Shown here piece by piece: positions 19,246 to 27,386 of a stretch of DNA of 64,000 nt. Position numbers and translations under genes: made by a program. Below the pieces are notes generated by a model, which saw only the letters and a list, made by a program, of their open reading frames with translations, made no database searches and was not told the origin of the DNA. The first letter of the stretch is position 1, and every line of letters starts with the position of its first letter. Source of the DNA: Escherichia phage REP4; the sequence record OQ174503.1; one strand, given 5' to 3'.

Positions 19246-19632
19246 TTATTCGAGGGAAAGAAGATATTTACTCTGGTAAAACATTCCAGTAATATCATCT
19301 ATCGTGCTTTGAATGGCTGGAGGCATTTCTTTGTAAATGCTATTAGATTGGTCTAGTATGCGATCAATCATTTTAATTGTGTCGGTAGGAAGTTTACTAG
19401 CATCTGGAATTGAAGGTGTGTATTTTCTACCAGAATACCCCAAATACTGCTCACCAAATTTATCAATCAAATCTGGCAACTCAGAGAAAATAAAATCGTA
19501 TGCCTTGTGTCTAGCATAACTTTTAGTTTCAAAATGCGCAGAATGAAAATAAGCTTGCGCAGCCATTAATAAACCTAAGTATTCATCTGCCTTTGAAGGT
19601 TTTCCACTTTGTGAAAAGTCGCTGAATTTCAT
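19246..19632 (-). CDS. hypothetical protein
   Basis: 128-aa ORF; its ATG overlaps the reconstructed rI stop (ATGA). Confidence 0.5.
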
Positions 19633-19923
19633 TCAGTCTCCAATTTAATGTTCATAATTCTAGCGTATGATTGTGCCATCTCCGCGCCTCGTTCTATACA
19701 TTCAAAATCAGAAGAACACGGGTCATTTTTTATAAGTCGTTCGCATAAAACTATAGAACTGTTCAGATGATTCTACGCTTTTATTTTCAAAAAGCATATA
19801 AACGTGTCTAATACCAGATTCCATAAATTTATCAAAATGAGGATCGACATTCGCTTCAATTGGCGGAGATAAAGCAAACGCTAATCCTAGCATGGCAAAT
19901 AGTGCCGTTGCTTTTAAGGCCAT
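19629..19923 (-). pseudogene. rI: rI lysis-inhibition regulator (antiholin), disrupted by +1 frameshift in an A6 run
   Basis: N-terminal 66 codons (MALKATALFAMLGL...FYSFMRTTYK) stop after the run at 19726-19731; the +1 frame continues [32 protein letters not shown] to the expected stop. Span is 295 nt, one more than 3 x 98. Confidence 0.7.
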
Positions 19924-21361: not shown

Positions 21362-21549
21362 TATTCTTCTACATGCTGTTTACGACCTTTCTTATCAATA
21401 AAGGTATATTCAACGAATGTTCCAATATAGTCTTTATCTACATCATGTGGACTATTAATTGGGCATTTAGTACGGCAAATGCGTTCCCATTGACGAATAA
21501 TTTCCACTTTGTTTTTAGGATCAAACGGATGCGGGTAATGTGCTTTCAT
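21337..21549 (-). CDS. hypothetical protein
   Basis: 70-aa ORF. Confidence 0.4.
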   Translation of the reverse strand: MKAHYPHPFDPKNKVEIIRQWERICRTKCPINSPHDVDKDYIGTFVEYTFIDKKGRKQHVEEYCLKVTRL

Positions 21550-22000
21550 AATCCACCACTATTAAATCAATATCAGGAGTAAACATGTCGATTAATTTAG
21601 AAACCTTATCCCAATCGCCGCCAGCAATACCGCAACCTATGCGTGGAATATAAATTACTGGTTTAAACAAAAGGGTCTCTGCCTGTAGATTTAATTCTAT
21701 CATGCAGTTTACTAAAGCACCATAATCAAGATTAGGACCCGGTTCGTATTGCGTATAAAGGTTATAGCATATACCAAATCCTGTAGGACTGTGTTTAAAA
21801 ACAATAGACATATCGCCTAATTTATCACGAGAACCGTACTCGGTAGTGGTTTTATCTATTTCTAAAATTTTGGGATAGGCTTTTGCTAATTGACCTGCTA
21901 CGCCAGAGCCCATTGTGTGGAAGCAATTGCACCCGTGCGCAATAATATTACCTTGAAGAAATAGGGCGACAATATCGCCCTTGATATATTTTACAATCAT
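21521..22000 (-). CDS. macro-domain protein (putative ADP-ribose binding/processing)
   Basis: 159 aa; N-terminal GDI...QGNIIAHGCNCFHTMGSGVAGQLAKA and later IPRIGCGIAGG resemble macro-domain motifs (GDIT / NAAN / GGGV / G-x-G-G). Confidence 0.55.
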   Translation of the reverse strand: MIVKYIKGDIVALFLQGNIIAHGCNCFHTMGSGVAGQLAKAYPKILEIDKTTTEYGSRDKLGDMSIVFKHSPTGFGICYNLYTQYEPGPNLDYGALVNCMIELNLQAETLLFKPVIYIPRIGCGIAGGDWDKVSKLIDMFTPDIDLIVVDYESTLPASV

Positions 22001-22338
22001 CTAGTACTCAATCCTCGATTATAAGAATCTACCAAACGGTCAACCATTGAATGACAAGCGGCTTTATCTTTCTCCTCCGCAACTGAACATTCTAAGGTAT
22101 TCCACTTTTTAGCATATCGTTTTAATAAAGTATCATTTTTGTATCTGCTTGATTTATCTCTTTCTCCGTCTTTATATGCATATATTAATTTCTGCGCAAA
22201 TTCAGCTTGGCATGCTTTATTTTTCCCGCAATAATCCGCGGCAGTACGGTTTACATACTCTCTAATTTCAGTATATGATGTATTTGCTAACGCAGAAAAT
22301 GAAATTAATCCTATACATAAAACCAAAATTTTAGTCAT
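21997..22338 (-). CDS. small secreted/periplasmic protein
   Basis: 113 aa with N-terminal signal peptide (MTKILVLCIGLISFSALA) and four Cys. Confidence 0.5.
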   Translation of the reverse strand: MTKILVLCIGLISFSALANTSYTEIREYVNRTAADYCGKNKACQAEFAQKLIYAYKDGERDKSSRYKNDTLLKRYAKKWNTLECSVAEEKDKAACHSMVDRLVDSYNRGLSTR

Positions 22339-22876
22339 TTACTATTTCCAAAAGTTTATTATTTTTAAGGTAGTTAGCCTTTTCTAGGACTTCAGAAGCA
22401 TATTTAGAACCTGCTTTAACATTCCATCCCGAATTATAAGAGGATATTGCCTTTCTTATATCACCCTTATGTATATTTAACCAATAAGAAAGTTCAATGT
22501 ACGCCCAGGAAGCTGAATTGGACCGTTTATTCAACATTCTTTTTATTTCGGCATCGGTCATATTATAACCAAGTTCCTTAATTCTTGCTCGCATGGTCGG
22601 CAAATAATTTTGGAACATTCCGTAGGCATGATGCTTTGGTTTAGATTTTAAATTAACTCCGGCAGAGCTTTCTTGCCATAAAATAGCAGCCATTATATGA
22701 CCTAATCCACTCTTGTGGATATTTTTGTGTGTTTTATATTTTCCATCCTTAGAAAATTGTTCCCCGAATTGATACGCGTAACGCATGTTATCGAGTTGGA
22801 CATTACTGAAAGTATGCTCGGAGCTATGTGCCATCATAGAAATGGCCAATAGACCAGCGAGTAGTGCTTTTCTCAT
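22331..22876 (-). CDS. periplasmic lytic transglycosylase-like protein (SLT domain)
   Basis: 181 aa; signal peptide then SLT-type motifs (LWQESS, GMFQ, SYNSGW). Confidence 0.6.
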   Translation of the reverse strand: MRKALLAGLLAISMMAHSSEHTFSNVQLDNMRYAYQFGEQFSKDGKYKTHKNIHKSGLGHIMAAILWQESSAGVNLKSKPKHHAYGMFQNYLPTMRARIKELGYNMTDAEIKRMLNKRSNSASWAYIELSYWLNIHKGDIRKAISSYNSGWNVKAGSKYASEVLEKANYLKNNKLLEIVND

Positions 22877-23372: not shown

Positions 23373-23401
23373 ATTATACCACAGTCAAGAGGAAAAGTAA
23401 A
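23373..23401 (-). promoter_or_regulatory. sigma70-type early promoter (-35 TTTACT, 17 bp, TG-extended -10 TATAAT)
   Basis: Consensus hexamers upstream of regB. Confidence 0.55.

Positions 23402-26417: not shown

Positions 26418-27386
<969 letters not shown>

Follow-up and report, generated by a model that had tools for sequence, protein, structure and literature searches.

In the genome of Escherichia phage REP4 (OQ174503.1), analysed here as one stretch of 64,000 nucleotides (nt) that we call the window, the gene vs, known from T4 as a modifier of the host valyl-tRNA synthetase (ValRS), overlaps the end of vs.1, which encodes a predicted secreted lytic transglycosylase. Vs.1 has a complete family-1 SLT/GH23 domain including the catalytic Glu69, and we hold with high confidence that both proteins are exported. 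Whether the two genes constitute a periplasmic module that is expressed early, with Vs either working alongside the transglycosylase Vs.1 or restraining it, we regard as evenly balanced.

Both open reading frames (ORFs) lie on the minus strand. The gene vs.1 (22331..22876) codes for an exported-type family-1 transglycosylase of 181 residues that is 99% identical to T4 Vs.1 (NP_049725; 179 of 181 positions, two substitutions), and vs (21997..22338) for an exported-type, basic four-helix-bundle protein of 113 residues that is 97% identical to T4 Vs (NP_049724; 111 of 115 positions). All four differences in Vs fall within residues 16-21, that is, in the c-region of the signal peptide and its cleavage site, where a deletion of two residues is accompanied by substitutions; the predicted mature protein departs from that of T4 only at its first residue (N19 versus D). 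The genes share 8 nt (22331..22338, minus strand; ATGACTAA), a stretch that holds the start codon ATG of vs and, in the other frame, the stop codon TAA of vs.1, so that vs, as read directly from the sequence, starts inside the last codons of vs.1 at a probable translational-coupling junction. An earlier note made from the same letters had given the pair as 21997-22876 with an 8-nt overlap, which is exact, but had the order wrong: it called the ORF with the SLT motifs the downstream one, whereas transcription of the minus strand puts the SLT gene upstream and the small Cys protein downstream.

The pair region finds matches in 719 phage records (95-99% identity in 452; 98.6% in the best, which are Tequatrovirus genomes), and vs.1 and vs are therefore real genes rather than chance ORFs; the window itself belongs to Tequatrovirus, being about 98.6% identical to phages GEP001 and CT01. 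Records that follow T4 nomenclature name the genes vs.1 and vs, with regB upstream and tk.4 downstream. Gene order, strand, 8-nt overlap and both neighbours are the same in T4 as in REP4, and no functional difference between the two pairs is expected despite the substitutions in the Vs signal peptide and in Vs.1. A weak similarity of vs.1 to SLT is already in print (Nolan et al. 2006 and the T4 genome review of 2003; PMC1524935). Given that report and the T4 annotation, these are long-annotated T4 genes and not new ones; our literature searches on vs.1 returned nothing beyond comparative-genomics papers.

Transglycosylase domain and export signals

Vs.1 matches the Pfam SLT model (PF01464) over residues 61-154 with 23.1 bits (curated cut-off 21.3; E=5.7e-5), and 30 of 32 members of its family match it at E<=0.01. 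Family 1 of the lytic transglycosylases is defined by a catalytic Glu in an E-S motif, GxxQ, (A/S)YNxG and a downstream Tyr, and in Vs.1 this set is complete; the earlier note had picked out ES, GMFQ and YNSG in the larger ORF, and all three are there. In an alignment of 32 homologues reaching down to 42% identity, E69 is invariant and S70 nearly so in ES (residues 69-70; codons at 22667..22672, on the minus strand like those that follow), G86, F88 and Q89 are invariant in GMFQ (residues 86-89; 22610..22621), Y147, N148 and G150 in YNSG (residues 147-150; 22427..22438), and Y159 is invariant as well. The AlphaFold2 model, with a predicted local distance difference test score (pLDDT) of 88.8 and low confidence only at residues 1-20 and the last few, has the goose-lysozyme-like, all-helical SLT/GH23 fold that the earlier note had anticipated. 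The top Foldseek matches to it are all GH23-type enzymes, at weak E-values, and its solved structural neighbours share only 13-20% sequence identity with it; sequence-profile searches of the PDB found no solved relative of Vs.1 or of Vs. The mature enzyme, calculated at 18.8 kDa and an isoelectric point (pI) of 9.65, is quite likely to be catalytically active.

The small Sec-exported family-1 transglycosylases include EtgA of a type III secretion system and MltE, and further IpgF, IagB, P19 and VirB1. Vs.1 resembles the small secreted "specialised" enzymes among them, such as EtgA. It differs from EtgA, MltE and the catalytic domains of Slt70, MltC and MltF in being encoded by a virulent phage, in lying in an early gene block and in being unlinked to a secretion or conjugation machine, and from enzymes of the EtgA/MltE type also by a conserved N-terminal extension of its own (residues 19-58).

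Some phages export their lysis enzymes: P1 Lyz, phage 21 R and fOg44 Lys44 are endolysins with a signal peptide or a signal-arrest-release (SAR) domain, and such endolysins have in common with Vs.1 that a phage muralytic enzyme is exported by host Sec without a holin, which for Vs.1 is a prediction. It could thus be proposed that Vs.1 is itself a lysis endolysin of this kind, or a virion-borne enzyme that pierces the wall, with the small ORF as a holin- or spanin-like accessory. The muralytic fold with its N-terminal hydrophobic segment invites such a reading, as does a Felixounavirus homologue that is annotated as "putative lysin" and lies about 1.2 kb from spanins, yet we consider it highly improbable. 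The hydrophobic core of about 13 residues, followed by an A-H-S cleavage motif, is too short for a SAR anchor, and Vs.1 has neither the uncleaved N-terminal membrane domain of about 20 residues nor the role in lysis that mark a SAR endolysin. The gene lies in an early-gene block behind an early-type promoter, mature Vs is modelled as a soluble helical bundle with no membrane segment, and the canonical endolysin gene, e, is found at 26418-26912. In T4, moreover, the holin gene t is essential and vs.1 dispensable (HIDEN-SEQ, Extended Data Table 6, from which all transposon figures below are taken; 10.1101/2025.11.20.689424). The presence of e and t rules Vs.1 out as the lysis enzyme, and both the SAR-endolysin and the virion-enzyme readings were rejected on the strength of the short h-region with its cleavage motif and the presence of e. 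What the earlier note had said of an enzyme separate from the holin/endolysin route stands, since Vs.1 is predicted to be exported and the endolysin encoded elsewhere is an ordinary cytoplasmic one with no signal peptide.

Signal peptides were called by a simple n-h-c rule together with conservation across the family, and on this basis the signal peptides that the earlier note had seen on both ORFs are upheld. In each protein a positive n-region precedes a hydrophobic core of 11-13 residues, and positions -3 and -1 are occupied by small residues. In Vs.1, residues 1-18 (MRKALLAGLLAISMMAHS, cleaved before SEH; 22823..22876, minus strand; MRK-ALLAGLLAISMMAHS) divide into MRK, ALLAGLLAISMMA and an A-H-S that precedes S; in Vs, residues 1-18 (MTKILVLCIGLISFSALA, cleaved before NTSY; 22285..22338, minus strand; MTK-ILVLCIGLISFSALA) divide into MTK, ILVLCIGLISF and an A-L-A that precedes N. 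The rule flags only three of the 104 putative genes of the window, namely rI, vs and vs.1. Across homologues the sequence of the segment drifts freely in both families while its architecture is retained: 45 of 48 distinct Vs.1 homologues keep the n-h-c pattern, the other three being artefacts of start-codon calling, and the n-h rule holds for every one of the 45 full-length distinct Vs homologues. Four distinct Vs homologues, all in one subclade (loci L060, L061, L063 and L075), carry a canonical lipobox (MKKLFVLLVVVALSGCK, ALSGC), and a lipoprotein version would have no rationale unless Vs proteins did their work in the envelope. Conservation of the signal region relative to the mature region across the Vs family (0.40 versus 0.43) is uninformative, and changes confined to the Vs signal peptide and cleavage site are seen only when T4 is compared with the window. 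We infer from these sequences that both proteins would be exported by Sec and processed by signal peptidase I.

The AlphaFold2 model of Vs (pLDDT 85.4) is a four-helix bundle with helices at 15-37, 41-63, 68-84 and 89-110, and the mature protein is predicted to have 95 residues, a mass of 11.0 kDa and a pI of 9.05 (precursor 12.9 kDa). Its four cysteine codons, which fall within 22054..22230 on the minus strand, place C-x5-C and C-x10-C at two helix-hairpin turns: Cys37 (22228-22230), Cys43 (22210-22212), Cys84 (22087-22089) and Cys95 (22054-22056). All four are invariant in the family, being kept in the mature region of all 45 full-length distinct homologues at spacings of C-x5/6-C and C-x8/10-C, and among 20 diverse members, whose identity goes down to 17%, what is conserved comes to the four cysteines, two glycines and a few hydrophobic positions. 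Vs thus probably carries two disulfides formed by DsbA. By its sequence Vs is assigned to the Vs family (PF26829, phrog_1256): it matches phrog_1256, "valyl tRNA synthetase modifier", over its full length (E=6.5e-40), and all its database relatives carry PF26829, whereas Vs itself had no match in NCBIfam or in Pfam, the version of Pfam searched being one without PF26829. The family was phage-only in every search made.

Periplasmic pairs of an inhibitor with a lysozyme-fold enzyme are known, among them Ivy with MltB and T4 Spackle with gp5. The logic proposed here for Vs, a small exported protein controlling a lysozyme-fold enzyme in the periplasm, would be shared with inhibitors such as PliG (PDB 4g9s) and the Tsi3 of the Tse3-Tsi3 pair (4luq), and the target enzymes of PliG/Tsi3-type inhibitors appear among the structural neighbours of Vs.1. 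Vs shows no structural or sequence relationship to Ivy, PliC/MliC, PliG or Spackle, however, and the idea that it works like PliG, Ivy or Spackle is a hypothesis on mechanism, drawn by analogy, and not a classification.

Linkage of vs to vs.1 and loss of either gene in T4

In a sample of 47 vs.1 loci from a viral contig collection, representing 41 distinct Vs.1 sequences from 99% down to 43% identical, a Vs-family ORF lies directly downstream and on the same strand every time (47/47 loci, 41/41 distinct), at a spacing of -8 to +7 nt, and in 22 of 22 Vs loci vs.1 lies directly upstream. Early counts had given a different impression, with Vs in 6 clusters by a word-index search, in 8 representatives among 1.84 billion proteins and, by tblastn, in 795 phage records as compared with 2051 for Vs.1. 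The conclusion that most vs.1 genes lack vs was nevertheless rejected as an artefact that stems from how far Vs has diverged. In Cognac, a Krischvirus phage, the ORF directly after the vs.1-like gene encodes a secreted four-Cys protein related to Vs, and when the Vs profile was rebuilt with this homologue and the loci were rescanned, vs was recovered downstream. With the enlarged profile, 44RR, Aeromonas phage 65 and Miro are the only sampled Straboviridae in which no Vs was found behind vs.1, and the pair occurs in Kanagawavirus, Dhakavirus, a Klebsiella phage, Krischvirus, Acinetobacter phage Acj9 and Shewanella phage Thanatos-2. The gene tk.4 comes directly after vs in only 20 of the 41 distinct loci, and in Acj9 the pair is kept, near rI, though neither regB nor tk.4 adjoins it. 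Degenerate copies of Vs are of two kinds: that of locus L062 is frameshifted, and those of loci L029 and L045 have lost the first Cys pair through an internal deletion. Such copies fit with a non-essential gene.

The surroundings of vs in other phages hold two further features. Directly after vs, with a 4-nt overlap, many T4-like lineages carry a third family of secreted proteins, which makes a run of three signal-peptide genes. Its members have 130-150 residues, a signal peptide ending in A before WEKLPGYP and two conserved Cys, and include L039 3866-4267, L056 3869-4303, L060 3872-4291, L073 3842-4267, L079 2270-2689 (Acj9p136) and L081 2367-2819 (TH2_047), among others; no homologue was found in this window, and the family is presumably absent from T4. 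Acj9 (L079 2695-3281) has vs.1, vs, this third secreted protein, a small membrane protein and rI in one block that lacks regB and tk.4, so that the genes there adjoin lysis-inhibition genes. In Aeromonas phage 44RR2.8t the slot between vs.1 and tk.4 is occupied not by Vs but by a 75-residue ORF and by ORF105c, a predicted lipoprotein of 146 residues (L005 2856-3296; beginning MKKSIATLIAIGMYGC); no similarity of ORF105c to Vs was found, and it may be a non-homologous replacement of Vs.

Published transposon data for T4 bear on the pair as well. In lysogeny broth (LB) both genes are non-essential, with insertions at 30 of 32 TA sites in vs and 46 of 52 in vs.1 (10.1101/2025.11.20.689424). Mean counts in liquid LB are 26.6 for vs and 22.6 for vs.1, as compared with 178.6 for regB, 289.6 for tk.4, 767.3 for tk.3 and 652.1 for vs.3; that is, insertions in the pair are 7- to 30-fold rarer than in the flanking genes regB, tk.4 and vs.3. 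From LB to M9 the log2 fold change is -2.19 for vs (adjusted p 0) and -0.87 for vs.1 (p 0.0055, adjusted p 0.155), the corresponding values being +1.17 for regB, -0.07 for tk.4, -0.03 for tk.3 and -0.06 for vs.3. According to the same preprint, vs is the T4 gene most depleted in M9-glucose relative to LB and its clean deletion gives poor plaques on M9-glucose, and its authors call the role of ValRS modification unknown (10.1101/2025.11.20.689424). From K-12 to the clinical strain CFE299 the log2 fold change is -1.20 for vs.1 (adjusted p 0.015) and -1.04, not significant, for vs (10.1101/2025.11.20.689424). The two genes share a fitness signature that their neighbours lack, which fits one pathway, and we lean modestly towards the view that Vs and Vs.1 do act in one. 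Loss of vs is worse than loss of vs.1 in M9, as would be expected if unrestrained Vs.1 were harmful.

Alternatively, both proteins could be exported and yet function independently, Vs.1 as an auxiliary enzyme of wall remodelling or lysis and Vs on some other periplasmic target. The evidence for export serves this explanation equally, both proteins are basic, Vs.1 occurs without Vs in several phage groups, the M9 effect is much stronger for vs than for vs.1, and T4 does export small periplasmic effectors, "sp spackle periplasmic protein" being listed in the HIDEN-SEQ table (10.1101/2025.11.20.689424). Even so we judge it unlikely, in view of the fact that Vs is never found away from vs.1 in the loci described above, that the -8 to +7 nt junction is kept even without regB and tk.4, as in Acj9, and that low insertion counts are common to vs and vs.1 and not to their neighbours. 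On this explanation the target of Vs might be, for example, host lytic transglycosylases, host lysozyme inhibitors or, in the manner of Spackle, the tail lysozyme of superinfecting phages; that the Vs model retrieved no Spackle or inhibitor fold also speaks against it.

The ValRS assignment and the proposed module

The annotated view holds that a cytoplasmic Vs binds the host ValRS, that the adjacency of vs.1 is inherited synteny, and that the signal-like N-terminus is unused or export partial. Every database labels the family in this sense (phrog_1256, phage records), and the label has been traced to purification of the factor and to genetics (Muller & Marchin 1975, 1977, cited in PMC8076793). 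The vs deletion has its defect in minimal medium only, a condition in which aminoacylation could become limiting, and the adjacency of regB and vs.1 is nearly as conserved as that of vs.1 and vs, so that synteny need not mean shared function. On balance we find the annotated view somewhat unlikely. A signal peptide is present in 45 of 45 distinct homologues despite drift, with a lipobox in one clade; the invariant residues are only the four cysteines and two glycines, with no conserved surface though the ValRS target is highly conserved; and vs.1 insertions show the fitness pattern of vs too. Signal peptidase acts on the periplasmic side, and the purified ValRS-modifying factor was reportedly about 10 kDa, which is nearer to the processed 11.0-kDa Vs than to the 12.9-kDa precursor. 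Full-length His-tagged T4 Vs was insoluble when expressed in the cytoplasm (PMC8076793), a behavior that is weakly consistent with export.

Early expression of the pair is suggested by an early-type sigma-70 promoter-like site upstream of regB (23373..23401, minus strand; TTTACT-17-TATAAT with a TGn extended -10), which we tentatively take as the likely start of a regB-vs.1-vs transcript. Promoter-like sites are not enriched in the region (19 found, 19.9 expected from shuffles), and neither are terminators, but this is the only site that resembles a T4 early promoter, and the scan gave no terminator-like site between regB, vs.1 and vs. The Shine-Dalgarno sequence of vs.1 is GAGG; that of vs falls within the end of vs.1 and is weak, which fits translational coupling.

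In the module that we propose, the promoter ahead of regB would drive early expression of vs.1 and vs, and both proteins would cross the inner membrane via Sec, with processing by signal peptidase I. There the two would act together in the infected cell, with Vs.1 cutting the glycan strands of host peptidoglycan by a route separate from holin T and endolysin e. Translational coupling would keep Vs at a fixed ratio, and Vs, its cysteines oxidised to two disulfides in the periplasm, would bind or otherwise control Vs.1, most likely by a restraint or targeting that prevents premature wall damage. The earlier note had suggested that the small protein could be a chaperone, regulator or inhibitor; what speaks for such a role is the tight coupling of the genes, their co-occurrence and their parallel transposon phenotypes. 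Direct binding of Vs to Vs.1 is a possibility that we place a little short of even.

Several points weigh against this proposal. The gene of a cytoplasmic RNase, regB, immediately precedes vs.1 in 39 of 41 loci, and because it is joined to vs.1 almost as tightly as vs is, synteny is weak as proof of shared function; as decisive proof we rejected it. Vs.1-like genes without Vs are found in 44RR, Aeromonas phage 65, Klebsiella phage Miro, Vibrio phage D506, Ackermannviridae and Felixounavirus, so the enzyme does not need Vs, which is an accessory of Vs.1 and not a requirement. The basic pI of both mature proteins disfavours a tight complex, and a fold search with the Vs model returned only generic helical bundles and no Spackle, lysozyme-inhibitor or transglycosylase-inhibitor fold. 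As to fitness, insertions in vs.1 may be polar on vs, which would confound the comparison of the two genes, and in LB vs.1 insertions are as depleted as those in vs, which disfavours a pure antidote model; the pure "toxic enzyme plus antidote" scheme was rejected for this reason. The M9 phenotype of vs fits the classical ValRS view equally well. Finally, vs was assigned to cytoplasmic ValRS modification by Muller and Marchin (1975, 1977, cited in PMC8076793). Such a cytoplasmic ValRS-binding role is hard to reconcile with the predicted extracytoplasmic location of Vs, and one may imagine that the binding is secondary or takes place after cell breakage, that part of Vs is cytoplasmic, or that the ORF assignment is wrong. 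Tentatively, and with clearly less than even confidence, we put forward a bolder picture in which Vs in the infected cell is a Sec-exported, disulfide-bonded periplasmic partner of Vs.1, joined in some phages by the third secreted protein, in which ValRS modification is secondary or follows breakage, and in which the M9 phenotype is an envelope phenotype. The T4-like phages would then possess an early module for remodelling the wall from the periplasm.

Neighbouring genes and the meaning of the pair

The gene that follows vs in the window, tk.4 (21521-22000, minus strand), overlaps the vs stop codon by 4 nt and encodes a macrodomain protein (Pfam Macro, weak DarG similarity) that has been named AdfM and protects T4 from the DarTG2 defence system (HIDEN-SEQ preprint, 10.1101/2025.11.20.689424); it is unrelated to the envelope module. 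A GC-rich 8-bp hairpin followed by a T-rich stretch lies 16 nt past the vs stop, within the first tk.4 codons (21963-21981, minus strand; AGGGCGATATTGTCGCCCT), and may act between vs and tk.4 as a partial terminator, in RNA stability or in translation control. In rI (19620-19923, minus strand) a poly-A run near 19726-19732 has one extra A (A6, versus A5 in T4 and PP01); the resulting frameshift after about codon 65 leads to a stop at residue 66 of 97 and loss of the C-terminal periplasmic part with its two cysteines. The extra base is either real, which would make the phage a rapid-lysis (r) mutant, or a sequencing error in the homopolymer.

The annotation of both genes has drifted in public records. 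Vs is often labelled "valyl-tRNA synthetase", as though it were the enzyme itself, and vs.1 homologues in Miro, CF1, STP07, LIMEstone1 and others go under "endoribonuclease", "putative RegB protein" or "T4 RegB-like". The record labels "valyl-tRNA synthetase" for Vs and "endoribonuclease" for vs.1 need correction.

What is gained beyond the known genes is strong evidence, drawn from the whole family, that the "ValRS modifier" belongs to the envelope and is joined to a transglycosylase that is secreted. If Vs is indeed a periplasmic partner of Vs.1, one of the oldest "known-function" labels of T4 sits on a protein built for the periplasm and joined genetically to a wall-cutting enzyme, which would explain why a biological role of ValRS modification was never found and would give the recent minimal-medium phenotype of vs a concrete cause. 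The infection cycle of T4 would also gain an early, holin-independent step of peptidoglycan remodelling, one that many T4-like phages would share, with hosts in Escherichia, Klebsiella, Edwardsiella, Acinetobacter and Shewanella.

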